Below are positions 7,827 through 43,665 of a DNA stretch of 45,565 nt, one piece after another. Numbering within the stretch: the first letter of the stretch is position 1; each line of letters opens with the position of its first letter. Location: the NCBI RefSeq assembly GCF_036365525.1, contig NW_027140453.1:1364001-1409565 (forward strand), written 5' to 3'. Source of the stretch: Heterodontus francisci. Lineage: Eukaryota. The notes beneath the pieces were generated by a model that was not told where the DNA came from, searched no databases, and saw nothing but the letters and a program-made list of their open reading frames with translations. A program made the position numbers and the translations under genes.

Positions 7827-7854
7827 CACAGAGAGTGAACCCACCATTGAAACC
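7827..7854 (+). other. 12-RSS of J: CACAGAG-12 bp-ATTGAAACC
   Basis: Heptamer 7827-7833, spacer 7834-7845 (12 nt), nonamer 7846-7854, abutting the J coding end. Confidence 0.8.
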
Positions 7855-16435: not shown

Positions 16436-16889
16436 AAGACTCCAGGCACAGAAATACACGGCCGAGTGATTCTCCCGCAGGCTGGAGGACTCCAGGTTGA
16501 ACTGGGTGCCAGTCGGTCTCTCGGCAGTGAAACCGTCCACCTCCTTCTCTGGATTTTTGTGATTAGTACCCGTGGAGTAAAACATAACCTGAGGCTCCTT
16601 CCTCGGGTATTGTCTGTACCAGAACATGTTAAGGGTACTGCTCCCCTCCAAAGTGCACTTCAGTTCCACTTCCTCCCCCACAACTCTGGAGACAGAGGCA
16701 GGAGTCTGGAGGATAGTCTGCGAGTTCACACCTGGGAGAGAGTGGGGAAGAGGAAGAGGTCAGTAAACAGGGGATTTCTAGGAAATGAAAGGAAGAGGGA
16801 ATGAGTATAGGAAGGTTATTAGAGAAAACGTTGGTATTTCAGACTCACTCACAGTGCAAAAGGATTATCAGAGCCAATGACTGATACAT
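16436..16889 (-). CDS. TRBV: TCR beta V gene segment (TRBV30-like), intact: leader 16853-16889, V exon 16436-16731
   Basis: MYQSLALIILLH-C-VNSQTILQTP..LKC..WYRQ..YFCAWS; GTGAGT donor and CAG acceptor; perfect 23-RSS CACAGTG (16435-16429)-23-ACAAAAACC (16405-16397). Confidence 0.93.
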
Positions 16890-16964
16890 CTTCCCCTTGA
16901 AGCTGTTTAGAAATAAGCAAAGCAGCGAGAACCGGAGTGTAAGCCTTGTGAGGGTCCAAACCTG

Positions 16965-17060
16965 CTCTTTACAAATCATTGAGGAAAATATGAAGAGCAT
17001 GAGGAAGTGATGCAGTGTTGGACACGCCCCCTTCCAACACCCAACCAATCAGAATGGACG
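16965..17060 (-). promoter_or_regulatory. V promoter module conserved upstream of most V genes
   Basis: On +: TTTACAAATCATTG (minus TGTAAA; TATAAA in the copy near 41865), AGGAAGTGATGCA (ETS core), CACGCCC, CCAATCA. Related modules at ~26740, 34810, 36460, 38090, 40360, 41865, 43745. Confidence 0.65.
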
Positions 17061-17539
17061 TGGTTCCTTGTTATGGTTGAGTGACTGGATTAAGTGTTGT
17101 TAATATCCCCAACAAGGATGTATGTTGTTCAGTTTCTAATTTACTGATGAGAAATCTCCAATTGAACATATCCAGATCCCCAACGAACCTCATCGGCATT
17201 CCCACATTAGCCACGTGTAGATTTCCAATTTATAGACATCTGGATTCCAGTTTATCCACACCTTCATCTCCGAATAGCCAGATGTCGATGCCGTGTGTCT
17301 CCTGGCAAACGTTGTAAGCAACAGTGGCCTGAGGCAAATAGGTGCAATGCCACCTGTGTGGCACTGGGCTCCTTACCTATTCTACAGCAGGGCTATGCAC
17401 ATTACTGGGTCCTTGGCAAGTTTAAATTGCACTGGGTGTGCCTGTGCCTGAACCCATGTAACCTGGGCATCAGCCTAGGCCTCTGGCTTATTATCGCAGT
17501 GACATTGCAACTATGCCATCGTTATCCTTAGACCAGGGC

Positions 17540-19490
17540 GGTTGAAGAGACATTTACCAGAATGGTGCCATGGTTGAGAGACGGTTGTTATGTGGAGAGA
17601 CTGGAGAAGCTGGGACAGTTTTCCTGGATCAGAGCAAGCTAATGGGACGCTTTAACCCTGGAGGTACAGCCGTTCGATAGAGCAGTTAGGGAGAAATGAT
17701 ATCCCCTGGCAGGAGCTTCGGAAGGTAGAGACTTCACATATAGCATCAGCAAGCAATTGGGAAAGTTAATGTTATGTTAGCCTTTATCGCAAGGGGATTT
17801 GAGTACAGGAGTAATGAAGTCTTGCTTCAATCGTGGAGAACCTTGGTTAGACCACACCTCGAGTACTGTGTGCAGTTTTAGTCCCTTGACCTTCGGAAGG
17901 ATATTATTCCCATGGAACGAGTGCTAAGAAGTTTCACCCGACTTGTTCCAGGGATGGCGGGACTGTCCTATGAAGAGAGATTGGGGAAACTGGGCCTGAA
18001 TGCTCTGGAGTTTCAAAGAATGAAAGGTGATCTCATTGAAACCTACAAAGTCCTTAAAGGGATAGACAGGGTAGATGCAGGCAAGAAGTTTCCTCTGGTT
18101 GAAAGAGAAGGTAAGTCAGACACTAGAGTGTGTAAAATGGGTAAAGTGAAAGTGTTCGATCGGCTGTCTGAACATAAAGTAGATAAAGCACCAGCAGCAG
18201 ATGAGATGTATTCAAGGATACTGAGGGAAGTGAGGGTGGAAATCGCGTTGGCCATAATTTTTCAGTCTTCCTTAGACTCAGGGCTGGTGCCAGATAACTG
18301 GAGAATTTCAAACGTTACACCCTTGTTCAAAAAGGGGGTAAAGATAAGCCCAGCAACTACAGGCCAGTCAGTTTAACTTTGGTGGTGGGGAAACTTCTAG
18401 AAAAAATAATTCGGGACAAAATCAATAGTCACATGGACGAGTTAATTAATGAAAGACAGCATGGATTCCATAAGGGAAAATCATGTTTAACTAACCTGCT
18501 AGAATTTTTTTGAGAAGGCAACAGAGAGGGTTGATGAGGGCAATGCTGTGGATGTGGTATACATGGACTTTCAAAAGGCGTTTGATACAATGCCACACAG
18601 CAAACATGTGAGAAAACTTGTAACTCGTGGAATAAAAGGGACGGTAGCAACATGGCGACGAAATTGGTTTAGTGACAGAAAACAAAGAGCAATGGTTAAT
18701 GGATGGTTTTTCGGGCTGGAGGAAGGTTTGCAGTGGAGTTCCCCAGGGATCAGTATTAGGACCTTTGCTTTTCCTGATATATATTAATGACCTAGACCTC
18801 GGTGTACAGGGCACAATTTCAAAGTTTGCCGATGATACGAAACTTAGAAGCATTGTGAATGATGAGGAGGATAATGTCGAATTTGAAAAGGACATAGACA
18901 TGTTGGTGGAATGGGCAGACAGGTGGCAGATGAGGTTCAATGCAGAGAAATGTGAAGTGATTCATTTTGGTCGGATGAACAATAGAGAATAAAGGGCACA
19001 ACTCGAAAGGGGGTGCAGGAGCACAGGGGCCTAGGTGTATATTTGTTTCAGTCATTAAGAGTGGAAGGACGGGTTGGGACAGTTTTACTTGGAGAAGAGA
19101 AGGCTGAGAGGTGATTTGATGGAGGTTTTCAAAATCATGAGGGATCTGGACAGAGTAGATGGAGAGAAACTTTTCCCACTCGTGAAAGGATCGAGAGGGC
19201 ACAGATTTAAAGTATTTGGTAAGGGAAGCAAAAGTGACATGAGGGAGAACTTTTTCACACAGCGAGTGGTGAAGGTCCAGAATGCACTGCCTGAGAACGT
19301 GGTGGAGGCAGGTTCAATTGAAGCATTCAAGAGCGAATTAGACAGTTATATTGAAAGGAAGGATGTGCAGGGTTATGGGGAGAAGGCAGGGGAGTGGGAC
19401 TGAGGGAATTTCTCTTCCAGAGAGACAGTGCGGGCACGATGGGCCGAATGACCTCCTTCTGCACTGTAACAATTCTGTGATTCTGTGGTT
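17540..19490 (+). mobile_element. Composite of frameshifted CR1 ORF2 fragments
   Basis: NWRISNVTPLFKKG, YMDFQKAFD, GVPQGSVLGP, FADD and FTQRVV motifs broken by stops and frameshifts; CR1 tail ending (ATTCTGTG)n near 19490. Confidence 0.9.
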
Positions 19491-21509
19491 GAGAAGTCTA
19501 GAACCAGGGGGCTCAATTTCACGACCACAGCGAGTAAGTTAAGGCCAATAGTGGAGATGCATTTAAGGGGGAGATTAGATCAGGACATGAGGGAGTAAGG
19601 AATAGAAGGAGGTGCTGATGGGCTGAGATGCAGAGAGATGGGAACAGGATTTTAAACCGTGGTGCGGAGTCAACTCCCCCTTGGCCCCTTTATTCCCTTC
19701 ACCCACTTGATTCTGGCTGTCACGTGGGACTAAGTCCTCTTAATTCAGACTCAGGCTGGGTGTTTGGGATATTGGGGTTACAGGAGAGCCACCCTCCACC
19801 TAATCCACCAGTTACGGTTAATGGCTTAGTACAAAGAGGAGGAAACTCAGTCCTTTCTTTAACTATCAAGTTACTTTATTCACGTTGTTGTACAATGGAA
19901 GAATAAGGCTTATACACTTGGTTAGACAAAAGCATGCAACTCAACTGGGTTATACAGTTAATAACAAAGCTAGCTAGAATTGATAAGCACACCCACCAGG
20001 TTCCTCTGACCTTTCCCTGACCTCGTCACAGAAAACAAACGATAATTCCCGGAAAGGGAAGAGCTGATGCTGGCCAGACGTTCTGATCTCTCTCTCTTTT
20101 ACGTCATCACCGCGTTGCTCACGCAGGGTCTTCCACTTCCACAATGGTTGGTCTCTGAAGTTTCTCGCTGGTTCTATGCCTGAGATTCTCCATACTTATT
20201 CTCTTTCTTATCTCTTCAAAACTGTGCTGTCTCTTTCCTGTTGGTTTAGGCCTGCTCACCTCGTTCGTATCTTCTCCTTATTGGCCCAGGCCCAAAGACC
20301 CCGGTATCACACCGTTTCCAAATAAGGCTCTATTCCTGTGATTTCTCCCTTGTCTGTCACATAAATTAATTAGTTCAAACTGGTTTTTACCAGCACAGGC
20401 CAGTGTCTGAGCTCAGGTTACTTTAGTTCATGTGCTATCCAGCAGTTTGTAACAGATTCTGTACTTCTTGCAGCCCATGGCCAAGGGATGATGTTGTTTA
20501 TTTTGGGTAACTGTTTCGAACAGCCAGACCAGGCTCGATTGATCGAATGACCTTGGTCAGTGCTGTATGATTCTATAACTATCTAAGACGCATCAAGGGG
20601 CTTATTTGTTTTAGGCTGAGAAAGATTTATTTTCCCTGTCTCCTAAACGAGAATTGAAGGGTTAAATTCTTGCCTGGGCCTAACTCCCAGATGCTTTGAA
20701 AGTTCTTCAAAAGACACCGAGTGTCTGAAAGACAAGTTGGTTAATAATTGTCAACAGTTGCTCAAAACCGCCAAATTAGGAATCTGTTCCAGTGAGAGAC
20801 CTATCTGGGGAGTTGTCTCGTATTTGCATTGTATGAATCATCAGGGGCATGTAGAATAGGGAGCTCTGTGCAACTCCTTGTCAGAATCTTCCGTCCATTC
20901 TTTCAACTGTATCATGAACCCATTTACCCTGCCTTGTAATCTGTTCTTAAAATGTAGAGGCTACCTCACGAAAAGAGCCTTATCACGTGGATGGAGCATT
21001 TTAATCATTAATATTGTATTGATATAATCTGAATCGAAGGAGAACAAGAAGATACAACAATATCAACAAAATAGCAAACCATGATATATCACTGATGGAA
21101 CTGCGAGATGTAAACAATGACGTTAGATATATGATAAACAACAGAGGGATGGATATACACTTAGACAGACAAGAGCCAGATAAATCGATCGATGACAAAT
21201 ATATATAGATGACAGAGTAAATAGATAAATAGATAAATAGAGATAAATAGAGATATGTATCGATAGCTGGAGGGATCGATAGAGCAATGGATGGATAGAC
21301 AAATGGAACAATAGAANNNNNNNNNNNNNNNNNNNNNNNNNNNNNNNNNNNNNNNNNNNNNNNNNNNNNNNNNNNNNNNNNNNNNNNNNNNNNNNNNNNN
21401 NNNNNNNNNNNNNNNNNNNNNNNNNNNNNNNNNNNNNNNNNNNNNNATTGAGAGATAGATAGATTGAGAGATAGATAGATAGATAGATCGATCGATATAG
21501 ACCCCAATC

Positions 21510-22870
21510 ATTGACCCACCTCACTGACCCCACTCACTGACCCCACTCACTGACCCCACTCACTGACACCACTCACTGACTCCACTCACTGACCCCACTC
21601 AGTGACCCCACACACTGACCCCACTCACTGACACCACTCACTGACTCCACTCACTGTCCTCTCTCACTGACTCCACTTACTGTCCCCACTCACGGACCCC
21701 ACTCAGTGACCCCACTCAGTGACCCCACTCAGTGACCCCACTCACTGACTCATCTCACTGACCCCACCCACTGACACCACTCACTGACTCCTCTCTTTGA
21801 CCCCAGTCACTGACACCACTGACTGACCCCACTCACTGTCTCCACTCACTGTCCCCACTCACTGACCCCACTGACTGACCCCGCTCACTGACTCCACTCA
21901 CCGACACCACTCACTGACTCCTCTCACTGACCCCACTCACTGAGTCCACTCACTGTCCACACTCACTGACCCCACTTACTGACCTCACTCACTGACTCCA
22001 CTGAGTGACTCCACTCACTGACTCCAGTCACTGACCACACGCACTGACCCCACTCACTAACCCCTGTCACTGACCCCACTCACTGACTACGCTCACTAAC
22101 CCCGCTCACTAACCCCGCTCACTGACTCCACTCACTGTCCCCGCCCACTGACTCCACTCACTGACCTCACTCACTGACTCCACTGAGTGACACCACTCAG
22201 TGACTCCACTCACTGACTCCACTCACTGACCCCACGCACTGACCCCGCTCACTAACCCCGCTCACTGACCCCACTTACTGATCCCACTCACTGACTCCCC
22301 ATTGACCCCGCTCACTAACCCCACTCACTAACCCCGCTCACTGACTCCACTGACTGTCCCCGCTCACTGTCCCCGCACACTGACCCCACTCACTGACCCC
22401 ACTCTTAGCATCCACTTACTGCCTCTGCTCACTGACTCCACTCATGGACTCCACTAACATCCTCCACTCACTGTCCCTGCTCATTAACCCCACTCACTGA
22501 CCTCACTCACTGACTTCAGTGAGTGACACAACTCAGTGACTCCACTCACTGACTCCACTTACTGATCCCACTCACTGACTCCCCACTGACCCTGCTCACT
22601 AACCCCACTCACTGACCCCACTTACTGATCCCACTCACTGACTCCCCACTAACCCCGCTCACTAACCCCGCTCACTAACCCCACTCACTGACTCCACTCA
22701 CAGACTCCACTCACTGCCTCCGCTCACTGACCCCGGTCACTGACCGCACTCACTGACCCCACTCACTGACCCCACTCACTGACCTCACTCACTGACTCAA
22801 CTGAGTGACACCACTCATTGACCCCACTCATAGATTCCACTCACTGACTCCACTCACTGACCCCACTCAA
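21510..22870. repeat. Minisatellite, 13-bp unit CACTGACCCCACT
   Basis: Directly visible degenerate tandem array, preceded by (GATA)n and an N-gap. Confidence 0.95.
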
Positions 22871-23310
22871 TCTCCCAGATCAATCCCTATAATAATCCTT
22901 CATTCTCGAGATCAATCCCTATAATAATCCTTAATTCTCCAGATCAATCCCGATAATAATCCCTCATTCTCCAGATCAATCCCTATAATAATCCTTCATT
23001 CTCCAGATCAATCCCGATAATAATCCCTCATTCTCCAGAGCAATCCCTATAATAATCCTTAATTCTCCAGATCAATCCCAATAATAATCCCTCATTCTCC
23101 AGATCAATCCATATAATAATCCTTCATTCTCCAGATCAATCCCAATAATAATCCCTCATTCTCCAGATCAATCCCTATAATAATCCTTCATTCTCCAGAT
23201 CAATCCCTATAATAATCCCTCATTCTCCAGATCAATCCCTATAATAATCCTTCATTCTCCAGATCAATCCCTAGAATAATCCTTCATTCTCCAGATCAAT
23301 CCCTGTAATA
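22871..23310. repeat. Minisatellite, 32-bp unit CTCCAGATCAATCCCTATAATAATCCTTCATT (~13 copies)
   Basis: Period 32 (e.g. CCAGATCA at 22971 and 23003); highly homogeneous. Confidence 0.95.
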
Positions 23311-23866
23311 TCCCCTTATTGTCTCTATCTCTGTCTCCCTCTCTGTCTCAGTCTCTTTAACTCTGTCTGTCGTTTTTGCTTTCTCTCACTAGATCTCTCT
23401 CTGTCACACACATACACTATCTTCCCTTCTCTAACAAAGTGGGTGTCCTTGTCCTGTTCATGTATATCAAGCTGGATCTGCAGACCTCCCGCTCTTTCCG
23501 TTTTCTCACTAAATCCTTTTCAAAGCCATTGTCCATTCCATGGTCCTGGAACCCCCTCTGCTGTCCCTGTGCAGAAGGTAAACACAGGGTCAGTGCATAA
23601 AAAATCCAGATTATTGTCATTGATTCCGGATAGTTACATTCTGAGATCTCGTGACATCCTTATTCATCGTTCATTGCACCCTCGCCAGTACCTGTAAATC
23701 TAAAATCTCACTACAATATTAACTCAGCTCTTTTTATTGTAATAAACACTTTCACTCTGCAAAAGGGAACAGCAGGTCGAGGCACCGAACGGTTTTACCC
23801 TCCACAGGTGTTTCCTGCTGCCTTTCGGGTTTTTGTTGAATTGCTCCATCTCTCTGAGTCACTGTG

Positions 23867-24162
23867 ATGACTCCAGGCACAGGAATATACGGCCGAATGA
23901 TTCTCCCGTCGGCTGGAGGACTCCAGGTCGAACGTGGAGTCAGTCGGTCTTTCGGTGGTGAAAGCCTCCACCGTCCCCTTTGAGTTCACCCCTTGTGCAG
24001 TTAGGGAGTAAAACATCAGCTGCAGCTCCTTCCCCGGGTATTGTCTGTACCAGTATATGTAAGGGTCACTGCTACCATCCACGGTGCATTTCAGCTTCAC
24101 CTGCTCACCAGGAAATTTGGAGACAGCGGCGGGAGTCTGGTTTATAGTCTGTGAGTTCACAT
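23867..24162 (-). pseudogene. TRBV: Leaderless TRBV30-like V exon (open frame, intact RSS)
   Basis: DVNSQTINQTP..C..WYRQ..YSCAWS; 23-RSS 23828-23866 is perfect; comparison with 36320-36420 shows the whole leader exon deleted near 24300. Confidence 0.85.
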
Positions 24163-25931
24163 CTGGGAAAGAGACAGGGAGAGGACGAGATCAATAAACA
24201 GGGAACTTCAGTCCAGTGGGGAGAGAGAAAGAAATAGATAAATAAATAAAAACATAACCAAAAGAAATGTGAAGTAGAAATATTGTTTCAATGAAATCTC
24301 AATGAATCAGCAAAGGGGAGAGAGCAGGAGTGATGAGTGCTGTCAATAACCAACCCACTCTTTACAAATCATTGGAAGGAACAGGATCTGTATCTGTGTG
24401 TGTGTATGCGCGTGTGTGCATCTTCCTCTCTCTTTCTTACTATTTGTTGCTCACTCTCTCTCTGCATGTATCGAGCTTTGTCTCCCATTCTTTCTCTCTC
24501 TTTTTCTCTCTGTATCTGTGTGTGCGCACGCGTGTGTGTGCATCTTCCTCTCTCTGTCTCCCTCTGACCCCTTCATTTATGCTGAGTGTTTCCTCTCTAT
24601 GTCTCCCTGATTCACCCTCTCTGTCTCGATGTTTAATCGCCAGATGTATTGAGTTCCTGTACATTTGGGAGTTGTTCGCCTCTTTGCAGTGAAGGTTAGA
24701 GGGAGGTTAACCAGACTGGTGCCAGGGATGAGGGACTTCAGTTACTGTGGAGAGACTGGAGAAGCTGGGGGTTTCTCTCCTTAGAGCAGAGAAGGTTAAT
24801 GGTAGATGTGATCCAGATATTGAAGATCATAGAGGATTTTGATAGATAATTGATGATGAAGGACATCTTCTACTGGTTAATATATAGAAAATCTATGAAA
24901 AGACATTCATTTGTTACATTACTGCAGTATATTTAATTAGTTCACACGAACTGTAATCGCCTAAAGATAGAGTTAGATGGATACAGAGACAGAGAGATAT
25001 TTAAACAGGTAGAGAGATAGATAGATAGAGAGACAAAGAGATCGACAACCAGGTAGAGCGATAGATAGAGAGAGAGACAGTCAGGTAGACAGATTGATAT
25101 AGAGAGAGGTAGAGAAATAGAGAGATGGAGGGAAAGTCAGATAGGTAGAGAAATATCGAGCTAGATAGAGAGACAGTCAGGTAGACAGATAGATATAGAG
25201 AGAGGGAGAGAAATCGAGAGATAGATAGAGAGACAGTCACTGCCCCTGTAAAAGACAGGAATGTATATCGGCATTCTCTCATTTTACACCAGCTTGGTAG
25301 ATAGAGTGAGAGAGAGGGATGGAAATAAAGGGAGAGAGAGGGATGGAGAGAGATGGATGGAGAGAGGGATGGAGAGGGAGAGAGTGGAATGCAGAGAGGG
25401 AGCGATGGGAATGTATTGATCAGTCGTGATCTCATTGAAGGGCGGAGTGTTTCCGAGGTGATGAATGTTCTCGTTGTGTTCCCAGGTCACTGTCAAAGTG
25501 TGTTCCAGACTCTGATGTTTATCATGGTCCTACAGTGCACTCTGCTGTCCCTTTGGAGAAATAAAACACAGTGACATAACACNNNNNNNNNNNNNNNNNN
25601 NNNNNNNNNNNNNNNNNNNNNNNNNNNNNNNNNNNNNNNNNNNNNNNNNNNNNNNNNNNNNNNNNNNNNNNNNNNNNNNNNNNNNNNNNNNNNNNNNNNN
25701 NNNNNNNNNNNNNNNNNNNNNNNNNNNNNNNNNNNNNNNNCTTTATCTGATCTTCATTTCACATATTAAAATATTTATTAACCTCTCAAAGACCGCTGAA
25801 CGTTGACCCTTCAGTCTTCACCTTTGTGGAGCAAAGATCCCCCGATGCTCAAATTATCTTGATAACTTTAACCTCTGTGTTCTGATATCATTCCTGTAAA
25901 GTCTATTTCACAATTCCCCTGTGTTTCTATA

Positions 25932-26043
25932 TCTTCGTCTTCTTTGGCCTCCTTATCTCGAGAGACAATGAGTAAGCGCCTGGAGGTGGTCAGTGGTGTG
26001 TGGAGCAGCGCCTGGAGTGGCTATAAAGGCAAATTCTAGAGTG
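25932..26043. mobile_element. Short insertion, probable retroelement end, in a V 3' flank
   Basis: Present here but absent from the paralogous flanks at ~34100 and ~39650. Confidence 0.5.
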
Positions 26044-26207
26044 ACTTTCTATTAAATTTCGCCCTGTCTTCTTGTGAAAAACATGTTCCCAATAATAAAA
26101 AAACAACACCCAACAAGACGCAGCACCACCTGGTTTTATCTGAAACAGGTGTTTCCTGCTGCCTTTGGGGTTTTTGTTGAACTGCTCCATCTCTCTGAGT
26201 CACTGTG

Positions 26208-26659
26208 AAGACTCCAGGCACAGAAATACACGGCCGAGTGATTTTCCTACAGGCTGGAGGACTCCAGGTTGAACTGGGAGTCAGTCGGTCTCTCGGCAGT
26301 AAAACCGTCCACCGTCCCCTCTGGATCCACATAGTTAGCAGTATTGGAGTAAAACATCAGCAGCGGCTCCTTCCCCGGCTCTTGTCTGTACCAGTACATG
26401 TAGAGGGTACTGCTGCTCCCCTCCACAGTGCACCTCAGTTCCATTCCTTTCCCGGGAAATCTGGAGACAGCGGCGGGAGTCTGGTGGATATTCTTTGAGT
26501 TCACATCTGGGAGAGAGATGGAGAGAGGAGGAGATCAGTAAACAGGGAACTTCTGGGAATGAAAGAAAAACAGGGAGAGGAGAGAAAGGTTCTGAAGGAT
26601 AATCCTTGTATTTGGCACTCACGTTGAACCAGGATTATCAGAGCCAGGAACAGATACAT
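26208..26659 (-). pseudogene. TRBV: TRBV30-like pseudogene (in-frame TAG in FR3)
   Basis: Leader 26623-26659 (MYLFLALIILVQ, GTGAGT); V exon 26208-26506 with TAG at 26247-26249; perfect 23-RSS 26169-26207. Confidence 0.9.
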
Positions 26660-27049
26660 CGCCCACTTGACACTGCCCTCTCAAACAGCAAAGGCAGTGG
26701 AACAGAGGGGATCAGTTCTGTGACTAACCAATCCGCTCTTTACAAATCATTGAGGAAAACATGAAGGGCATGAGGAAGTGATGCAGTGTTGGACACGCCC
26801 CTTTCCACCACCCAACCAATCAGAATGGACGTGGTTGCTTTTGATGGTTGAGTGACTGGATTAAGTGTTGTTAATATCCCCAACAAGGGTGTCTGTTGTT
26901 CAGTTTCTAATTTACTGATTAGAACTCTCCAGTTGTTCATATCCAGATTTCCAAATGAACCTCATCGGCATTCCCAAATTACCCACATGTAGATTTCCAA
27001 TTACAGACATCTGGATTCCAAATGATCTGCTCCTGTCGGGGATGTATTA

Positions 27050-27425
27050 GTGTGTTGGTAATTTAACGAGACTCCTAATCCACAGTCTCTGCTAGTGTTT
27101 TAGCGATGTGGGGTGAATCCCACCAATGCAGATCATGAAATTTCAATGCCATTAATAAATCTGGATTTTTTTTTGGAAAGAAAGCTCGTCTAATCGTGTC
27201 CATTGTTTCAAAAATCCATCCAGTTCTCTGACGACTATGAGGGAAGGAAATCTGCCGCCTTCACCTGGTCTGGCCTACATGTGACTCCAGATCCACACAA
27301 TGTGTTTGACTATTAAATGCCCTCTGCAATGGCCCAGCAAGCCTCTCAGTTCAAGGGCAATTAGAGATGGGCAATAAATGCTGGCCTAACCAGCGAGGCC
27401 CACATCACATGAACGAATTAAGAAA
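27050..27425 (+). mobile_element. Ancient SINE-like remnant
   Basis: Core GGAAGGAAATCTGCC also occurs inverted at ~33045-33060; tail ...CCCACATCACATGAACGAATTA. Family not assigned. Confidence 0.45.
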
Positions 27426-27569
27426 ACAACAGCTAGATGTTGATTCTCAAATAGTCAGGTGGGACTCCTGGCAAACGTTTTCTGCAACACTGGCCCGAGG
27501 GATGTAGGTGGAACAATATCTGGGTCATACTGGGCTGCTGATCTATTCTACAGCTTGGTCTGTGCTCAT

Positions 27570-31540: not shown

Positions 31541-31571
31541 TTACTGGGTCCATAACCATCAGGGAGGCTCA

Positions 31572-31790
31572 AATCCACTGCTGCCAACTGCTGGTGGAAA
31601 ATGAGCACTGAGATTCAATCTACTGCTGCCCCCTGCCGGTGGAAGATGAGCACAGCGATTCAATCTACTGTTGCCCCCTGTCGGGGGAAAATGAGGACAG
31701 ACATTCAATCTACTGCTGCCCCTGCTGGTGGAAGATGAACACTGACATTCAATCTACTGCTGCCCCCTGCCGGTGGATGATGAGCACTGA
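31572..31790 (-). promoter_or_regulatory. Tandem array of 5 x 45-bp units with CTCF-like motifs, directly 3' of a V RSS
   Basis: Minus cores CCGGCAGGGGGCAG (x2), CCGACAGGGGGCAA, CCAGCAGTTGGCAG, CCAGCAGGGGCAG; same unit length and core as 12780-13070. Confidence 0.72.
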
Positions 31791-31849
31791 ACTCCCGTTC
31801 ATCCGCTGCAGGTTCTTGCAGCTGCGAATCCGCTTTCTCAAACACTGTG

Positions 31850-32616
31850 CGATACTGCAAGCACAGAAATAGACAGCGGTGTGAGATGGAGCAGCGTTTC
31901 TCAGTGCCAAAGTAAACAGTGCATTGCTGGATCTGACTGCATTAAATGACTCAGACGTGTAATTTGTAACAGACCCTTCTGTCGCAGAATAGAACAGAGA
32001 TTCCAGTGCCCTGTCTGGTTGTTGTCTGTACCAGTACATTAATGTACAGCCAGTATTGGTCAGCGTGCATCTGAGTGTTGTTGAATCTCCTGCTGCAATC
32101 GATAGGATAGAGGGCGACTGTTCCACATAGGAGGCGAGTATTCCTGTGGGATGGAACATCGATTAAATTATTATTTCAGTCAATAATGGATTGGAGCAGG
32201 AGCTGCATTGCAAGAAAGAAAGGGCTGACATTAATATAGCGCCGTTCAGGACCTCAAGACATCAGAAAGGCTTTGCAACCAATGTAGTTACTCCCTCAGT
32301 ACTGCCTCTGCGACAGTGCAGCACTCCCTCAGTACTGCCTCTGCGATAGTGCAGCACTCCCTCAGTACTGCCTCTGCGACAGTGCAGCACTCCCTCAATA
32401 CTGCCTCTGCGATAGTGCAGCACTCCCTCAGCCCTGACACCTGGGGTGTTACTTTTGACTTTGAGCTCAAGTGTTGCGGAGTGAGACTCAGACACAGGAG
32501 TGTTCCAGACAGAATCACCGCTGACATTACAATACATTATTCTACACAGTTTCTGACTTTCACTTACGTGGAAAGAATGCAGCCATCAAGATTAAACAGA
32601 GAACTTCATGCAACAT
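31850..32616 (-). CDS. TRBV: Divergent TCR beta-type V gene segment, intact: leader 32568-32616, V exon 31850-32143
   Basis: MLHEVLCLILMAAFFP-R-ILASYVEQSP..LRCTLTNTGCTLMYWYRQ..HTAVYFCACSI; GTAAGT donor and CAG acceptor; 23-RSS CACAGTG (31849-31843)-23-GCAAGAACC (31819-31811). Confidence 0.9.
32288..32430. repeat. 33-bp tandem repeat (CACTCCCTCAGTACTGCCTCTGCGACAGTGCAG) x~4 in the V intron
   Basis: Directly visible. Confidence 0.9.
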
Positions 32617-32899
32617 GATTTCTTCATTCGATACTAACTCGATGTGTGAACGTGTGGAGTTTTCAACAACACACTTGCAGGCGTTTTCTATATCGTATCC
32701 AATTAAATACCCAGCATCCAGTTGTCATTGTTATTGGCAGTCACTTACTGCGACACTCTGCTCCACCCCATTACATTGCATAACAATGTTGTGGAATGAT
32801 ACAACACAGGAGGATAGGGGGAGATTGAATAGAGGTGTTCACATTTCAGAAAGGGCTTTGATAGAGTAGAATTCAGGGAAACAAGCCTCTATACCCAGA

Positions 32900-33270
32900 G
32901 AGTGTGCCCATCCCTTATTGACCCTGAGAAGGTGATGGTGAACCATCTTTGGGAGTACCTGCTGGGCCATATCAGAGGGCAGTTAATAGTCAACCTCATT
33001 GCTGTGGGTCTGCAGTCACTTATAGGCCAGACCGGGTAAGAACGGCAGATTTCCTTCCTTGAAGGACATCAATGAATCCGTTGGGTTTTTACGACACTCC
33101 ATGTACAGGATTACTCATACTTTCCATGACAGATTTCTATTTATTTATTTAATTGAATTTAAATTCCATTTCTGCCCCTGGTGAAAATTGAACTCATGTC
33201 CGGGGATCATTAGTACAGGCCTCTGGATTACTAGTCCAGTAAAATAACCACTCTGCTACCGTACCTCTTT
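32900..33270 (-). mobile_element. Ancient SINE-like remnant, inverted relative to 27050-27425
   Basis: GGCAGATTTCCTTCC is the reverse complement of the core at ~27245. Confidence 0.4.
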
Positions 33271-33859
33271 GCTGAATGGGAGTTAAAGGGTTAAATTGTT
33301 CACTGGTCTGAACTGCTGGTTTCTTTGAAGAACACATCAAATGCGACTCGAGTCTGAGATGAAAGTTGGTAAACAGGTTTCAGCAGCTTCTGATCTCGCC
33401 GTCAGGAGGCAGATGTCCCAGTCCCGGAGATGAAGGTATCTGGAGAGGGGTCTCACTTTTGAACAGTGTGAAACAGCGCTCAGATGGTTAAGAGTTCCGA
33501 GCTGAGTTAGTTCCTATACATTGTGGGGTTGTTTGCCTACGTGTAGTGAGGGCTAGAGAGAGGGAGAGGTTTGGAGGGAGAGGGATGGAGAGAGGGAGAG
33601 AGAGGAAGAGAGAGGGATGGAGAGAGAGGGATGGAGAGAGGGAGAGAGAGGGATGGAGAGAGGGATCGACAGGACGTTACTGATCAGTCATGATCTCATT
33701 GAAGGGCGGAGTGTTTTCGAGGTGATGAATGAACTCCTTGTGTTCCCAGGTCGCTGTTAAAGTGTGTTCCAGACTCTGATGTTTATCATGGTCCTGCAGC
33801 GCACTCTGCTGTCCCTTTGGAGAAAGAAAACACCGTGACATCCAACGACAACGGATGTA

Positions 33860-33890
<31 letters not shown>

Positions 33891-34271
33891 CTCTAACTAT
33901 CTACCTGTGTTTATCTGATCTTCATTTCACATATTAAAATCTGTAATAATCTCTCTAAGACCGTTGAATGCTTACCCTTCAGTTTCTCCTTTCTGGAGCA
34001 AAGATCCCCCGATGTTCAAACTATCTTGATAACTTTAACCTCTGTGTTCTGATATCATTTCTGCAAAGTCTATTCCACAATTCCCCTGTGCTTCTATATC
34101 TAACCTGTCACTTTCTATTTAAATCCGCACTGTCTTCTTGTGAGAAACATGTTCCCAATGATAAAAAAAACAACCAACAGGAAGCAGCACCGACTGGGTT
34201 TATCTGAAACAGGTGTTTCCTGCTGCCTTTGGGGTTTTTGTTGAACTTCTCCATCTCTCTGAGTCACTGTG

Positions 34272-34727
34272 AAGACTCCAGGCACAGAAATACATGGCTG
34301 AGTGATTCTCCCGCAGGTTGGAGGACTCCAGTTTGAACTCGTACTTACTCAGTTTCTTGGCGGTAAAACCGTCCACCGTCCCCTCTGGATCCACATAGTT
34401 AGCAGTATTGGAGTAAAACATCAACAGCGGCTCCTTCCCTGGCTCTTGTCTGTACCAGTACATGTAGATGATACTGCTGCTCCCCTCCACTGTGCACCTC
34501 AGTTCCACTCCTTTCCCGGGAAATCTGGAGACAGCAGCGGGAGTCTGGAGGATAGTCTGTGAGTTCACATCTGGGAGAGAGATGGAGAGAGGAGGAGATC
34601 AGTAAACAGGGAAGTTCTGGGGATGAAAGGGAGACAGGGAGAAGAGGGGACAGTTATTACCGATAGTTTTTGCATTTCACACTCACTTACAATGAAACAA
34701 GATTATCAGACACAGTAACTGATAGAT
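34272..34727 (-). pseudogene. TRBV: TRBV30-like V with start codon lost (ATG>ATC); V exon open, RSS perfect
   Basis: Leader 34691-34727 begins ATC TAT CAG (paralogue at 40278 has ATG), with an in-frame TGA just upstream; V exon 34272-34570; 23-RSS 34233-34271. Confidence 0.85.
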
Positions 34728-34918
34728 CTTTCACTTCAACTTGTTCTCTTAATAGACACAGGAGTGAGATCAGGAGCTTAGACTCTTGTGAGGCTCCAAA
34801 TCAACTCTTTACAAATCATTGGGAGGAACATGAAGAGCATTAGGAAGTGATACAATGTTGGAGACGCCCATTCACCCAGGTCAACAAATCAGAATTGAAT
34901 TGGCTGCCAATCTGCTTC

Positions 34919-34951
<33 letters not shown>

Positions 34952-35897
34952 ATCTCTATCTCAGTTTACCTTCCGCTTTCTTGCGCTCTCTCTCTGTCTC
35001 TCTCTCTTTTGCTCTCCTCATGTGTCTAGGGTTATGTCTCCCACTCTCTTCCTTTCTCAGACTCTCTCTCCCTCTCTATCTCAGTCTATCTTCGCTCAAT
35101 TTCTCTCTCTGACACTCCCTCTCTCCTCATGTATCTAAGGTTATGTCTCCCATTCTCTCCTTCTCTCTGACTCTCCCTCTCTCATACTCTTGTTATCTCT
35201 TTAGTTATTTCCCTGTCTCTGTCTCTCTCTAGATCTATCTCCCTATCTGTCACAGGCTCTTTATCGCAGTCTCTCTTTCTCTCCGTCTCTCTCTCAGTGT
35301 CTCTCTCTCTCTCTCTCATTTGTGTCTCTTGCTGTCTCACTGTCTTTGCCTCTTTCTGCGTCTCCCTCTCTGTCTCAGTCTCTTTAACTCTGTCCGTCGA
35401 TTTTTCTCTCTCTCTCTAGATCTCGCTCTCTCTTTCACACACATACACTCACTTTCTCTCTCTAAAGGAGTAGGTGTCCTTGTCCTGTTGATGTTTATCA
35501 AGCTGGATCTACATGATCTCCTGCTCTCTTAGTTTTCTCACTAAATCCTTCTCAAAGCCATTGTCCGGTCCATGGTGCTGGATCCCCCTCTGCTGTCCCT
35601 TTGGAGAAGGTAAACACAGGGTCAGTGTATGAATACCCAGATTATTGTCATTGATTCCTGATAGTTACATTCTGAGATCTCGTGACATCCTTATTAATCG
35701 TTCATTGCACCCTCGGCAGTTCCTGTAAATCTAGTGTGTCACTACAACCATAACTCAACTCTTTTTATTGTAACAAACACTTTCACTCTGCATAAGGAAA
35801 CAACAGGTCGAGGCATCGAACGGTTTTACCCTCCACAGGTGTTTCCTGCTGCCTTTGGGGTTTTTGTTGAACTGCTCCATCTCTCTGAGTCACTGTG

Positions 35898-36382
35898 ATC
35901 TCTCCAGGCACAGAAATACACGGCCGAGTGATTCTCCCGCAGGCTGGAGGACTCCAGATTGAACTCGGAGTCTGTCGGTCTCTCGGCGGTGAAACCCTCC
36001 ACCGTCCCCTCTGAGTTCACCCTTTGTGCAGTTAGGGAGTAAAACATCAGCTGCGGCTCCTTCCCCGGGTATTGTCTGTACCAGTACATGTAAGGGTTAC
36101 TGGTGCCATCCACGGTGCATTTCAGCTTCACCTGCTCCTCAGACAATTTGGAGACAGAGGCGGGAGTCTGGTGGATAGTCTGTGAGTTCACATCTGGGAA
36201 AGAGACAGGGAGAGGAGGAGATCAGTAAACAGGGAAATTCAGTCCAGTGGGGAGAGAGAAAGAGAGAGAAGGAGAGAACGAAATAAATAAAACCATATCC
36301 TAAAGAAATGTTAAGTAGAATTATTGTTTCAATAAAATTCCTTACGGTGAAACAGGGTGATCAGAGTCAGTAACAGATACAT
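35898..36382 (-). CDS. TRBV: TCR beta V gene segment (TRBV30-like), intact: leader 36346-36382, V exon 35898-36193
   Basis: MYLLLTLITLFH-H-VNSQTIHQTP..CTVDGTSNPYMYWYRQ..YFCAWR; GTAAGG donor; perfect 23-RSS 35859-35897. Confidence 0.94.
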
Positions 36383-37603
36383 CTTTTACTTTAAGCTGCC
36401 TTCTGAATCAGCAAAGGGGAGAGAGCAGGAGTGATGAGTGTTGTTAATAACCAACCCACTCTTTACAAATCATTGGGAGGAACAGGGAGAGCATTAGGAA
36501 GTGATGCAGAGATGGTGACGTTCATTTCCCACATCAACAAATGAGAATCGAGTTGGTTGCCAATGTCCCACTTTCTCTCTCTCTCTCTGTCTCTCCCTGT
36601 CCTTTACTTGTGATGCTCCTTTCTTCCTCTCTGTCTCTCTTCTGTGCCTCCCTATATGTCTCAGTCTGTTTATTTCAGTCTCTCTCTCTCACAGATACAC
36701 ACACATTAGGTCTCTCTCTCTTTCTTTGTTTGTCTCTCTGTCTCTCTCGCTGTGTGTGTGTCTCTCTCTCTCTTCTCTCTCTCTAAGGATGTGGATTTCC
36801 TTCTCCTGGTCATGTATATCAACCTGGAGGACTGTATGTTCTCCCACTGTTTCAGTTTTCCTGTGAACTCCTTCTCAAAAGCCATTGTACATCACATGGT
36901 CCAAGAGCGTCCTCAGCTGTCCCTGTGGTGAAAATATACACAGTGTCAGTCTATAACAGCCCCAGTCCTTTTATTGTTATTCATTCCTGATAGTTACAAT
37001 CCTGAGATCACGGGATATTCTTATTCAATGAGCTGGAAGATGAATGGGCACGGATACAAAGCTGTGCATGTGTGTGCGTGTGTTTTTCACTCGCTCTGTC
37101 TTTAGTTAACTGTCTCCCTCTGTTTCACTGCTCTCTGTCTTTCTCTCCCTGTCTCTTTCTGTGTGTGTGTCTGTCTGTCTCCCAATCTGTCTCACTCTCT
37201 TCCTCTGTGTTTTTTTTGCTTTTCTCTCGCACTTCCTTCTTCCCCCTCTCTGTCCTCCTCTCTCTCCTCTGTCTGTCTCTCTGTCTCAGTCGCTTTCCCT
37301 CAGACGCTTTCTCTCAGTCTCGCTCTCAGACTCTCGCTCTCTGTCTCTGTCTCTCTCTCTCTGTCTCTCTCTCACTCTCTGTCTCTCTCTGTCTCTCAGT
37401 CTTTCTTTCCCTCAGTATCTCTATCTCTCTCTCTCTGTCCCTCTCTCACTCTCTGTCTCTCTCGGTCTCTCAGTCTCTCTCTCTCTGTCCCTCTCTCACT
37501 CTCTGTCTCTCTCGGTCTCTCAGTCTCTCTCTCTCAGTCTCTCTCACTGTTTCTCTGTCTCAGTCTCTCTGTCTCAGTCTCTTCCTCTGTGTTTTTTGTT
37601 TTT

Positions 37604-38010
37604 TGGGAGCTAGTCGGTCTCTCGGCGGTAAAACCGTCCACCGCCTTCTCCGGATTTATGTGATCAGTACCTGTGGAGTAAAACATAAACTGTGGCTCCT
37701 TCCCCGGGTATTGTCTGTACCAGAACATGTCAGGGTTACTGCTGCCCTGCACGGTGCATTTCAGCTTCACCTGCTCCTCAGAAAATTTGGAGACAGCGGC
37801 GGGAGTCTGGTGGATATTCTTTGAGTTCACATCTGGGAAAGAGACAGGGAGAGGAGGAGATCAGTAAACAGGGAACTTCAGTCCAGTGGGAGAGAGAAAG
37901 AGAGAAATAAATAAATAAAAACATCACCTAAAGAAATGTTAAGTAGAATTATTGTTTCAATAAAATCCCTTACGGTGAAACAGGGTGATCAGAGTCAGTA
38001 ACAGATACAT
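37604..38010 (-). pseudogene. TRBV: 3'-truncated TRBV30-like pseudogene (second Cys and RSS missing)
   Basis: Leader 37974-38010; exon from 37832 breaks off after ERPTSS into CT microsatellite. Confidence 0.88.
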
Positions 38011-38389
38011 CTTTTACTTTAAGCTGCCTTCTGAATCTGCAAAGGGGAGAGAGCAGGAGTGCTGAGTGTTGTTAATAACCAACCCACTCTTTACAAATCA
38101 TTGGGAGGAACAGGGAGAGCATTAGGAAGTGATGCAGAGATAGTGACGCCCAGTTAAACAAGTCAGAGTGGAGTAGGTTGACAATGTCTCTCTCTCTCTC
38201 TATTTGCATACATCCAGCTTTATGTCTACAACTCTTTCATTCTCTTTCTCTCTCTGTATATGTGTGTGTTTGTGTGTGTGTGCATCTTTCTGTCTCTGTC
38301 TCCCTCTGTCCCGTTCATTTCCACTGAGCTTTTCCTCACGACGTCTCCCTGATTCACCCTCTCTGTCTCTATGTTTCATCACCGGATTG

Positions 38390-39170: not shown

Positions 39171-39814
39171 TCCTTATTTATTTATACCCCAGAAACGCAA
39201 TGAGCTCCAATATAGTGACCTAAACCATCCAGAACCTAAACCATCCAGCATCTGCGGTACCTTGTGTTCAGTTCACCAGACTGTAACCGGGATGTATTTC
39301 TATAATTATCAGGAGAGGTTCATATACAAGTTTCAAAGTCCCTATTGAAACATCATCAATAATCTGATACTTATCATGGTCCTACACCGCCCTCTGCTGT
39401 CCCTTTGGATAAAGACAACACTGTCAGTGAATAAAACACAACAGTGTCTGTCTGCCAACCAGCTTTCTATCAACCTATCTACCGACCTATCTGATCTTCA
39501 CTTCACACATTAAACCCTTTCATAATCTTTCTAAGAACTATGAATGTTCACCCTTCAGTCTTCTCCTTTCTGGAGCAAAGATGTTTAAACTATCTTTGTT
39601 CCGATATCATTCCTGCAAAGTCTATTTCACAATTCCCCTGTGCTTCGATATCTAACCTCTCACTTTCTGTTTAAATCCGCCCTGTCTTCTTGTGAAAAAC
39701 ACTTTTCCAATGCCAAAAACACCCAACAGGACGCAGCACCGCCTGGTTTTATCTGAAACAGGTGTTTCCTGCTGCCTTTGGAGTTTTTGTTGAACTGCTC
39801 CATCTCTCACTGTG

Positions 39815-40278
39815 AAGACTCCAGGCACAGAAATACACGGCCGAGTGATTCTCCCGCAGGCTGGAGGACTCCAGTTTGAACTCGTACTTATTAAGTTTCT
39901 CGGTGGTAAAACCGTCCACCGTCCCCTCTGGATCCACATAGTTAGCAGTACTGGAGTAAAACATCAACAGCGGCTCCTTCCCCGGGTATTGTCTGTACCA
40001 GTACATGGAGATGCTACCAGTACATGGAGATGCGACTTCACAGTGCACATCAGTCCCACTCCTTTTGCGGGAAATCTGGAGACAGTGGCGGTAATCTGGT
40101 GGATAGTCTGTGAGTTCACATCTGGGAGAGAGATGGAGAGAGGAGGAGATCAGTAAACAGGGAATTTCTGGGAATGAAAGGAAGACAGGGAGAGGAGAGG
40201 AAAGTTATTAACGATAATCTTTGTATTTCACACTCACTTACAATGAAACAGGATTATCAGACACAGTAACTGATACAT
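39815..40278 (-). pseudogene. TRBV: TRBV30-like pseudogene: frameshift and 17-bp RSS spacer
   Basis: Leader 40242-40278; exon 39815-40121 with a 19-bp tandem duplication (39996-40033); heptamer 39808-39814, spacer only 17 nt, nonamer 39782-39790. Confidence 0.9.
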
Positions 40279-40465
40279 CTTTCACTGTAACTTGTTCTCT
40301 TAATGGACACAGGAGTGAAAGCCGGAGCCTAGAGTCTTGTGAGGGTCCAATTCCACTCTTTACAAATCATTGGGAGGAAGATGAAGAGCATTAGGAAGTG
40401 ATACAATGTTGGAGACGCCCATTCCCCCAGGTCAACAAATCACAATCAAATTGGTTGCCAATCAC

Positions 40466-40524
<59 letters not shown>

Positions 40525-41316
40525 CACCTTCCGCTCTCTTGCTCTCACTCTGTCTGTCTCGCTCTCTCCTCATGTGTCTGGGGTTATGTCTCCCACTCTC
40601 TCCTTCTCTCTGACTCTCCCTCTCTCTTACTCTTACTGTCTCATTAGTTCTTTCTCTGTCTCTGTCTCTCTCTAGCTCTGCCTCCCTATCTGTCTCAGGC
40701 TCTTTATCTCAGTCTCTCTTTCTCTCCTTCTCTCTCTGTCCCTCTCTCTCTCTCACTCTCATTATGTCTCTCTTGCTGCCTCGCTGTCTTTGTCTCTATC
40801 TCTGTCTCCCTCTCTGTCTCAGTCTCTTTAATTCTATCTGTCGTTTTTCCTCTCTCTCACTAGATCTCTCTGTCACACACACACACACTCTTACTCTCTC
40901 TAACAAAATGGTGTCCTTGTCCTGTTCATGTGTATCAAGCTGGATCTGCATGATCTCCTGCTCTTTCAGTTTTCTCACGAAATCCTTCTCAAAGCCATTA
41001 TCCGTTCCATGGTCCTGGATCCACCTCTGCTGTCCCTGTGGAGAAGGTAAACACTGTGTCAGTGCATAAAAACCTAGATTATTGTCATTGATTCCTGATA
41101 ATTACATTCTGAGATCTCGTGACATCTTTATTAATCGCAGTACCTGCAAATCTAGTGTGTCACTACAATAATGTCTCAACACTTTTTATTGTAATACTTT
41201 CACTCTGCATAAGGGAACAGGAGGTCGAGGCACCGAACGGTTTTACCCCCCCCACAGGTGTTTCCTGCTGCCTTTGGGGTTATTGTTGAACTGCTCCACC
41301 TTTCTGAGTTACTGTG

Positions 41317-41785
41317 AAGACTCCAGGCACAGAAATACACGGCCGAGTGATTCTCCTACAGGCTGGAGGACTCCAGTTTGAACTCGGAGTCAGTCGGTCT
41401 CTCGGCGGTGAAACCATCCAGTGTCCCCTCTGAGTTCACCCTTTGTACAGTGAGGGAGTAAATCATCAGCTGCGGCTCCTTCCCCGAGTATTGTCTGTAC
41501 CAGTACATGTAAGGGTTACTGGTGCCATCCACGGTGCATTTCAGCTTCATCTGCTCCCCAGGAAATTTGGAGACAACGGCGGGAGTTGGTGGATAGTCTG
41601 TGAGTTCACATCTGGGAAAGAGACAGGGAGAGGAGGAGATCAGTAAACAGGGAATTTCAGTACAGTGGGAGAGAGACAGAGAGAAAGAAGTACAAACATA
41701 ACCTAAAGAAATGTTAAGTAGAATTATTGTTTCAATAAAATTCCTTACGGTGAAACAGGGTGATCAGAGTCAGTAACAGATACAT
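41317..41785 (-). pseudogene. TRBV: TRBV30-like pseudogene: 1-bp deletion in FR1, TAG in FR3, degenerate RSS
   Basis: Leader 41749-41785; exon 41317-41611; GGGAGTTGG vs GGGAGTCTGG at ~41586; TAG at 41356-41358; RSS CACAGTA-23-ACAATAACC (41278-41316). Confidence 0.9.
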
Positions 41786-43191
41786 CTTTTACTTTAAGCT
41801 GCCTTCTGAATCTGCAAAGGGGAGAGAGCAGGAGTGATCAGTGTTGTCAATAACCAACCCACTCTTTATAAATCATTGGGAGGAACAGGGAGAGCATTAG
41901 GAAGTGATGCAGAGATGGTGACACTTATTTTCAAGATCAACAAATGAGAATCGAGTTGTAAATGTCCCAATTTCTCTCTCAGTCTCTCTCTCTTTTTTTC
42001 TCTCTCTCTCTAAGGGGGTGATTGTCCTTCTCCTGGTCATGTATATCAACCTGGAGGACTGTATGATCTCCCACTGTTTCAGTTTTCCTATGAACTCCTT
42101 CTCAAAAGCCATTGTGCATCACATGGTCCTAGAGCGTCCTCAGCTATCCCTGTGGTGAAAATATACACAGTGTCAGTCTATAACAGCCCCAGTCCTTTTA
42201 TTGTTATTCTTTCCTGACAGTTACTATCCTGAGATCACGGGATATTCTTATTCAATGAGCTGGAAGATGAATAGACACGGATACATAGCAGTGCATGTGT
42301 GTGCGTGTATTTTTCACTCGCTCTGTCTTTAGATCACTGTCCCCCTCTGTTTTACTGCTCTCTGTCTTTCTGTCCCTGTCTCTTTCTTTGTGTGTTTGAG
42401 TGCATGTGTGTATGTGTGTGTCTGTTTCCCAATCTGTTTCAGTCTCTTCCTCTGTCTTTTTTTTTTGTTTTCTCTCTGGTTCTTTCTTGGCCCCCCTCTC
42501 TGTCCTCCTCCCTCTCCTCTCTCTCCTCCTCTCAGTCTCAATCGCTCTGTCTCCGTCTCTCTGTCTCAGTCTCTTTGTCTCAGTCTCTCTCTCAACCTTT
42601 CTCTCTCAGTCTCTCTGTCTCTGTCAGTTTTCCTCTCAATCTTGTTCTCACCCTCTCTCACACACTCGGTCTCCCTCTCTTTGTCTCTCTCGCTGTGTGT
42701 GTGTGTATCCCTCTCTCAGGTGATGAATGTCCTTCTCCTGTCACTGTGTATGAAGCTCGAGGGCTGCATGACCTCTGCCTCTTTCTGTTTTCCGATTAAA
42801 TGTTTTCTCGTCCATTGTGTATTAATGGTCCTGGAGCGCCCTCTGTTAACCCTATAGAGGAAGAAAACTCAGTGTCAGTGCAGAAGAACTCACGTCGTTT
42901 TATTGTTAATCTTTCCTGATAGTTACAACCTCAGATCTGGTGTTATCCTTGTTAATCATTCAGAGAGAGATCGAAACTTTTACCGCACAGATGAGGTCCG
43001 TTCATTGTCTCTTCGTCAGTGCCCGTCCATCTATTATCACACTTTTATTCTCACTTGTCTTCTTATCGTCACAAAAACAATCGCCCTGCACAAAAACCAA
43101 GTGGCAGCACCGAGCACCTTTATCCTCCACAGGTGTTTCCTGCTGCCTTTGGGGTTTTTGTTGAACTGCTCCATCTCTCTGAGTCACTGTG

Positions 43192-43665
43192 AAGACTCCA
43201 GGCACAGAAGTACACGGCCGAGTGATTCTCCCGCAGGTTGGAGGACTCCAGGTTGAACTCGGAGTTACTTGGTCTCTCGGCGGTAAAACCATCCACCTCT
43301 TCTGGAGATACGAGATTGGCACCCGTGGAGTAAAACATAAACTGCGGCTCCTTCCCCGGGTATTGTCTGTACCAGAACATGTCAGGGTTACTGCTGCCCT
43401 GCACGGTGCATTTCAGCTTCACCTGCTCCCCAGAATATTTGAAGACAGCGGCGGGAGTCTGGTGGATAGTCTGTGAGTTCACATCTGGGAAAGAGAAAGG
43501 GAGAGGAGGAGATCAATAAACAGGGACATTCAGTCCAGTGGGGAGAAAGAGGAGAGAGAGAGAAAATCAATGAAAAATAAAACGAAAGAAATGTTAAGTA
43601 GAATTATTGTTTCAATAAAATGCCTTACGGTGAAACAGGGTGGTCAAAGTCAGTAACAGATACAT
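43192..43665 (-). CDS. TRBV: TCR beta V gene segment (TRBV30-like), intact: leader 43629-43665, V exon 43192-43484
   Basis: MYLLLTLTTLFH-H-VNSQTIHQTP..CTVQGSSNPDMFWYRQ..YFCAWS; perfect 23-RSS 43153-43191. Confidence 0.94.

Follow-up and report, generated by a model that had tools for sequence, protein, structure and literature searches.

Mammalian TRBV30 orthologs lie inverted 3' of the constant (C) genes in TRB, the T-cell receptor beta (TCRβ) locus (PMC2275272), and the inverted variable (V) segments of amniote TRB form one clade, with five members in tuatara and with the Vs of squamate TCR epsilon (TRE) as sisters (PMC11754216). Inverted Vs behind TRBC are also recorded for bamboo shark, bichir and sturgeon (PMC10322711, supplement 16), and the bamboo shark, Chiloscyllium punctatum, has two units, each then followed by 15 inverted Vs (PMC10322711). 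We analyzed a stretch of 45,565 nucleotides (nt) from the shark Heterodontus francisci (assembly GCF_036365525.1, contig NW_027140453.1, here C407, positions 1364001-1409565), hereafter the window and numbered from its base 1. At a probability of roughly 0.8, the window is the V-diversity-joining (V-D-J) part of an inverted second TCRβ unit with a broken constant gene, C2, whose intact Vs likely use a working Cβ. As with mammalian TRBV30, mouse TRBV31 and opossum TRBV28, its main V family belongs to one clade with these genes, stands in opposite orientation 3' of TRBC and carries recombination signal sequences (RSS) of the 23-RSS type. Unlike the mammalian gene, present once, the shark family has dozens of copies per contig, other V families share its block, and a D-J-C2 unit stands between the working constant gene, C1, and the Vs.

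Six-frame translation and RSS scans of the window placed nine CAW-type V exons, one V of another family and one relic on the minus strand, in agreement with a sequence-only reading of the window that had reported nine exons plus a relic. The motifs which that reading took to be common to the nine are only partly shared: CAWS occurs in 7/9 (the other two have CAWR or are truncated), SQTIHQ in 4/9 and SNP in 4/9. Exact CACAGTG-N22-24-ACAAAAAC signals were found six times, versus none in 100 shuffles, and a looser scan gave eight 23-RSS. An ATG leader, an open exon and a 23-RSS occur together in 3/9 members (V1, V5, and V10). V6 and V9 have open exons and no usable leader that we could find (for V9, none within 260 nt), and four members are broken: V2 and V3 by frameshifts, V4 by truncation, and V8 by a stop. 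The lineage is thus multicopy, as the earlier reading had said, and differs in this from single-copy mammalian TRBV30. The part of the window from 16436 to 34570 (minus strand) has a near-identical copy in opposite orientation about 400 kb away (C407:967882-987489, plus strand), in which the V10 protein is identical and the V8 counterpart has the same stop; judged from these sequences, the pair is a recent segmental duplication. The V of another family, V7 (CACS type), sits on a long branch and its tree placement is unstable; its family recurs in nearly every inverted block. FastTree put it close to the TRBV30 clade on a long branch, and IQ-TREE did not settle its placement.

The window is flanked on C407 by a working D1-J-D2-J-C unit on the plus strand (C407:1272404-1300995) with the features of TRB, namely Vs with 23-RSS, Ds with 12/23-RSS and a GGGACAGGGG core, Js with 12-RSS, and a TRBC-type C. 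Its C1, at C407:1300640 (plus strand), matches TCRβ constant domains, and Vs on the minus strand follow from C407:1335973. With the working unit on the plus strand and the window Vs on the minus strand, the latter therefore lie 3' of C and inverted. Across a 645-kb map (C407:924001-1569485), four D-J-D-J-C1 units occur in both orientations, each followed by a V block on the opposite strand, and for three of the four a 5' block of 4 to 6 direct Vs was mapped. The window's subfamily (subfamily-1) had 36 matches in this map, all in 3' blocks and 35 of them inverted, and none of the 16 direct Vs of 5' blocks belonged to it. A 3' block holds up to 28 V matches, versus 4 to 6 direct Vs per module, and this abundance of Vs does not fit a minicluster of the shark immunoglobulin (Ig) type, with one V, D, J and C. 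For the copy number of the lineage, the nine members in the window stand beside 663 first-look candidates, of which 40 were scored.

Relatives of the family were sought among 1.84 billion representatives. Among the 30 of 150 matches that were looked up by name are sequences of catshark, manta, stingray, sturgeon, gar, tarpon, newt, caecilian and frog, a reedfish protein named TRBV30 in UniRef and a cluster with donkey TRBV30; word-based protein searches gave few matches (2, 4 and 4). The closest named proteins are those of sharks (57-68% identity to Chiloscyllium), and identity to donkey TRBV30 is 40-45%. In a FastTree analysis of 247 domains, the window Vs fell together with mammalian TRBV30. 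In IQ-TREE, the clade joining them was supported at 85/98 with 86 rows, at 100/97 after removal of five long or unstable rows (W1395851m, P0058_154, P0002_72, P0024_108, and P0010_123), and at 99/95 in a 37-row tree whose bootstrap was not fully settled. Besides the window Vs and donkey TRBV30, the clade takes in rows of reedfish, sturgeon, gar, teleosts, amphibians, rays and sharks, and it stands apart from other TRBV, TRAV/TRDV, TRGV and Ig V; one mammalian row is named TRBV30 at its source (P0157), and most outgroup classes were set by sequence features rather than names. Approximately unbiased (AU) tests rejected a single clade of all Vs of this genome (p 1.5e-6) and a single clade of all mammalian TRBV, TRBV30 included (p 7e-4). 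When two window Vs were compared with the PDB, 5xov_J and the MEL5 family came out best among TCRβ chains with a single V; MEL5 uses TRBV30 (PMC5887915).

Between the Vs and C2, the window carries one D and two Js, J-a and J-b, on the minus strand (Table 1), so that the D-J noted earlier is real; an initial interpretation of the window's J as an orphan was dropped once C2, the D and J-a were found. The D lacks the canonical TRBD core and its 5' signal, with a spacer of 14 nt, is likely weak; one D-like element was found in 13 kb of the window, versus any in 1 of 200 shuffles, and 15 of 19 similar copies in the fetched loci keep the 3' 23-RSS. Strict RSS and D-core scans and short-word blastn with D1 and D2 returned no D in the window. 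The 12-RSS of J-a is as good as those of working J segments, and several J-a copies have lost the donor consensus. J-b has 13 copies genome wide, and the distance from J-b to C2 ranges among copies from 4.2 to 7.7 kb; in the window, a long degenerate tandem repeat (positions 1-3130, unit of about 37 nt by eye) fills the intron between them.

The constant gene reached by this D-J is of another kind. In the catshark gene model P0036, a family V and a J are combined with a constant domain that does not resemble C1, and a genome search with that domain found 24 loci of this second type, C2. For all 18 testable C1 copies, a C2 lies 15.6-20.2 kb behind C1 and opposite to it (tail-to-tail), three C1 copies at contig ends having no room for the test; four further C2, the window's included, are tandem repeats 60-62 kb from C1, and the two remaining copies are near contig ends. 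In-frame stops occur in 24/24 C2 exons. The four copies printed in full have one frameshift position in common, and C2 therefore likely died before the module was amplified. C2 is identical to catshark C2 at 62/110 positions and to C1 types at no more than 38/97, and C1 and C2 are about 37% identical. A 22-row tree of constant domains joined C2 to catshark C2 (99/96) and C1 to the C1 of five other sharks' rows (100/99); C1, C2 and two teleost TRBC formed one group (87/90), apart from the TRGC and Ig light chain (IgL) constant domains of this genome; it holds only two bony-fish TRBC and no tetrapod row, and it does not order the three TRBC lineages. That position of C2 within TRBC disfavors a TRG or IgL identity. 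The best 60 matches for the catshark C2 model list TCRβ chains and no TCRγ chain, a PDB search with the C2 domain returned mostly multi-domain Ig chains, and the ESM Atlas gave TCR-type C clusters that do not decide between beta and gamma. Both types occur in catshark, where C2 is open in the gene model, and the split between C1 and C2 therefore predates the divergence of these two sharks. These comparisons show C2 to be a separate TRBC lineage common to catshark and H. francisci. We found no description in the literature of a second shark TRBC or of shark TRBV30 orthologs, a search that does not establish absence from print.

The sequence-only reading had proposed, as alternatives, a deeply conserved jawed-vertebrate TRBV30 lineage expanded in this shark or an array in the inverted position with its own D-J. 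The tree, the orientation of C1 and the flanking map support both together. Not visible to that reading were the different, broken constant gene to which the D-J leads and the repetition of the module, which comprises a few 5' Vs, D1-J4/5, D2-J12/13, C1 and then the inverted C2-J-D-V block, at least 21 times. Six contigs together carry 21 copies of C1 exon 1 (21/21 candidates scored), with six copies on C407 alone; all are open, and the count of D regions agrees (40/44 candidates scored); these numbers come from one assembly. At both ends of contig C761, D-J blocks (4264, minus strand, and 1979086, plus strand) are cut off from a C that lies beyond the contig, and more than 21 cassettes may therefore exist. 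Rast and Litman reportedly described, in 1994, a multicluster TCRβ with many V, J and C copies in horn shark, from hybridization and clones and without the cassette anatomy.

Use of the Vs was sought in contigs from four runs guessed to be RNA, all of one sample. The leader intron of V5 or a close paralog was spliced out in contigs of 3/4 of these runs, and one contig, from run X6, runs from a family V to the start of the third complementarity-determining region (CDR3) and on into 21 nt matching a J of a C1 unit. Judged by this junction in a paralog, Vs of the family are able to join Js of C1 units, whichever the route. By established V(D)J rules, a V with a 23-RSS lying opposite to a D with a 12-RSS joins it by inversion. 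The TRBV30-lineage Vs, one D and two Js of the window point back toward the working D-J-D-J-Cβ unit and lead to a distinct, broken constant gene. We therefore propose RAG-mediated inversion, the route taken by mammalian TRBV30, as the likely means by which the intact Vs reach the working Cβ. C2 would have died before the module was amplified, as its shared break suggests, and the V pool may have kept its value, since Vs with a 23-RSS are able to join Ds of the working unit with a 12-RSS. The family probably expanded both by tandem duplication and by duplication of whole modules.

Several observations weigh against parts of this interpretation. Clade support falls below the bootstrap bar of 95 once long-branch rows are included (86 rows), and the V alignments have only 98-99 columns. 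The TRBV30 likeness might be convergence or a tree artifact, with an elasmobranch TRBV lineage that merely lies inverted; such an origin would fit the short alignments, the 40-45% identity to donkey TRBV30 and the choice of search matches by similarity to the query. We consider it very improbable and disfavored by these comparisons, given the intermediates in reedfish, sturgeon, gar, tarpon, newt, caecilian and frog, the rejection of the alternatives by both AU tests, and a position that agrees with the tree independently. A second TRBV30-lineage subfamily (HSPG type) accounts for 6/16 direct 5' Vs, and in gene models of catshark (P0036) and bamboo shark (P0007) a family V is linked to a J-C that lies on its own strand. 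The TRBV30 position is between TRBC and EPHB6, at a locus that also has trypsinogens and MOXD2. EPHB-type, trypsin and MOXD-type matches, as flanking markers, were absent from the seven TRB contigs, which are unanchored (Ephrin_lbd 22/22, Cu2_monooxygen 15/15 and trypsin 150/359 candidates scored). An inverted C is not listed for bony fish in the table excerpted from PMC10322711, and C2 may be an elasmobranch-only insertion before older inverted Vs. The number of cassettes could also owe most to assembly redundancy, with haplotigs or duplicated contigs of a locus of few units: every cassette is on a contig of 0.3-2.0 Mb, none of chromosome scale, and in the 4.1 kb around C1, 7/210 pairs of copies differ by less than 0.2%, one pair by 0 of 4099 nt. 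The median divergence is nevertheless 2.1%, about 13 groups are left after pairs below 0.5% are merged (from the nearest-neighbor table), and one contig bears six C1 in both orientations, which makes redundancy on that scale improbable.

The V-J junction was seen in a single contig, which has a depth of 2.1, resembles V5 at about 86% and comes from a run that is only presumed to be RNA; cassettes on the same strand lie 250-350 kb away, so that deletional joining could give the same junction. With the same anatomy, the Vs could instead depend mainly on long-range deletion, which would join them to a D-J-C1 cassette of their own strand elsewhere in the array. We think this rather unlikely, yet it is a real rival because both orientations are found among the cassettes: at C407:1014-1040 kb there is a D-J-C1 on the minus strand, the J of the junction matches the copy at C407:1029714 among seven Js of that type printed, and the inverted blocks of the bamboo shark are each direct relative to the other unit (PMC10322711). 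On the other side, each block keeps a fixed distance from the C1 to which it belongs (18/18) whatever the orientation, a deletion would have to span one or two whole cassettes, and the J variant may also occur in unmapped cassettes. Inversion into the own cassette remains the most likely route, and the Vs likely serve a working Cβ by inversion or by long-range deletion. That the inverted unit still works here, with V-D-Ja spliced to C2 or another exon as a truncated or alternative chain, is the possibility to which we give least credence. The normal 12-RSS and phase-1 donor of J-a and the D 3' 23-RSS kept in 15/19 copies would allow it, and the stops in all C2 exons, the 14-nt 5' spacer of the D and the J-a copies without a donor consensus oppose it.

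Among described loci, the TRB of bamboo shark is similar in its few direct 5' Vs and its approximately 15 inverted Vs 3' of C, and differs in its two units of one D each, where H. francisci has two D-J blocks in each of at least 21 units; the excerpted table, which gives no sequences, lists no inverted D-J-C in gaps of 34-46 kb (PMC10322711). By coordinates only, and hence indirectly, the intron starts at base 38 in 16/30 inverted and 0/5 direct bamboo shark Vs (PMC10322711), matching the 37-nt leader of 23/31 family members here. Squamate TRE is likewise a second TRB-related V-D-J-C with Vs sister to the 3'-inverted TRBV and a TRBC-related C, but it is a separate locus, with RTN4RL2-SLC43A synteny, proposed to be squamate specific (PMC11754216). 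C2, in contrast, belongs to the TRB module itself and is dead in H. francisci; our searches returned no sequence named TRE. Several V-D-J-C units, some opposite, also occur in the paired TRB of salmonids and pike (PMC10464911) and in the five tandem bichir units (PMC10322711). The salmonid pairs, however, are head-to-head with Vs in the middle (PMC10464911), in contrast to the tail-to-tail, strongly diverged C1 and C2. The excerpts of PMC12227049, PMC1845163, PMC12529555, PMC2192082 and PMC2193153 hold nothing on shark TRB layout.

Table 1. Segments of the inverted TCRβ unit in and beside the window (window positions unless prefixed C407)
Feature	Span	Parts	Strand	Remarks
D of inverted unit	8057..8139	14-nt coding part 8109-8096	-	3' 23-RSS
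J-a of inverted unit (VNDPATFGGRTRLTVL)	7778..7854	segment 7826-7778	-	12-RSS, phase-1 splice donor
J-b of inverted unit	3171..3238	segment 3231-3171	-	defective; poor nonamer, phase-2 donor
C2 exon		starts C407:1362877	-	broken; 1.1 kb beyond window base 1
Transmembrane (TM) exon of C2	C407:1357090-1356983		-	downstream of C2 exon
V1, TRBV30 lineage	43153..43665	leader 43665-43629, exon 43484-43192, 23-RSS 43191-43153	-	intact
V2, TRBV30 lineage	41278..41785	exon 41611-41317	-	pseudogene; frameshift and stop; RSS with one mismatch in heptamer, one in nonamer
V3, TRBV30 lineage	39782..40278	exon 40121-39815	-	pseudogene; frameshift; RSS spacer 17 nt
V4, TRBV30 lineage	37603..38010	exon 37832-37603	-	3' end truncated; no RSS
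V5, TRBV30 lineage	35859..36382	leader 36382-36346, exon 36193-35898	-	intact; 23-RSS
V6, TRBV30 lineage	34233..34727	exon 34570-34272	-	open exon; perfect 23-RSS; leader starts ATC
V7, different TRBV family (CACS)	31811..32143	exon 32143-31850	-	open exon; 23-RSS
V8, TRBV30 lineage	26169..26659	exon 26506-26208	-	pseudogene; in-frame stop
V9, TRBV30 lineage	23828..24162	exon 24162-23867	-	open exon; perfect 23-RSS
V10, TRBV30 lineage	16397..16889	leader 16889-16853, exon 16731-16436	-	intact; 23-RSS; V closest to D of inverted unit
V relic	14815..14852		-	only first codons of a family exon

Other features were observed around the mapped cassettes and on other contigs. One V family, at C407:1068170, 1212694 and 1431118 (minus strand throughout), has a short CDR2 region and ends in CAASM/V. 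One tree sets it next to Ig heavy chain (IgH) V (98/90) and away from other TRBV, which may be outgroup attraction or may mark an Ig-like V inside TRB. A region of 200 kb (C407:624001-824000) holds 58 V matches, every one on the minus strand, and gave no D, J or C1; this V block is much larger than those of the mapped cassettes. In 20 samples of contig C1317, Vs were seen at 343-388 kb and at 1.30 Mb; the three TRB Vs of the latter group (1300988-1305344) reappear about 900 kb past the last V sampled near the cassettes, and the locus may therefore be interrupted by non-TRB DNA. On contig C44, tandem retrotransposon-like elements with open frames of up to 1252 codons (21911156-21927609) adjoin a strongly divergent Eph ligand-binding exon (21931877-21932338), around which no V was found in 200 kb (about 100 kb on each side). 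A chromosome-scale contig bears five J segments together with one C exon (C5:199489302-199494340), likely the TRG locus, the J motif being TRGJ-like.

In sum, the inverted block of H. francisci extends the lineage and the position of TRBV30 to sharks and offers a concrete origin for the single inverted TRBV30, a textbook oddity: it suggests that TRBV30 may be the leftover of an ancient second beta-chain unit. A broader and tentative proposal, which we hold to be doubtful at present, is that the ancestral TRB of jawed vertebrates combined two V-D-J-C units, placed tail-to-tail and differing in constant isotype. Of these, the second would still encode a distinct beta-like chain in some sharks (as in the predicted catshark model), would be a 24-copy fossil here and would have left only TRBV30 in mammals, and it may be the source of squamate TRE. 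The work also indicates that elasmobranchs have a second constant isotype of TCRβ type, so far undescribed, for which catshark RNA can be searched directly. A 2019 review gives shark TCR genes a translocon arrangement (PMC6795676), and at least 21 near-identical TCRβ modules contradict its view of these loci as single translocons. Near-identical modules should, moreover, make allelic and locus exclusion in T cells testable by means of cassette-specific single-nucleotide polymorphisms.

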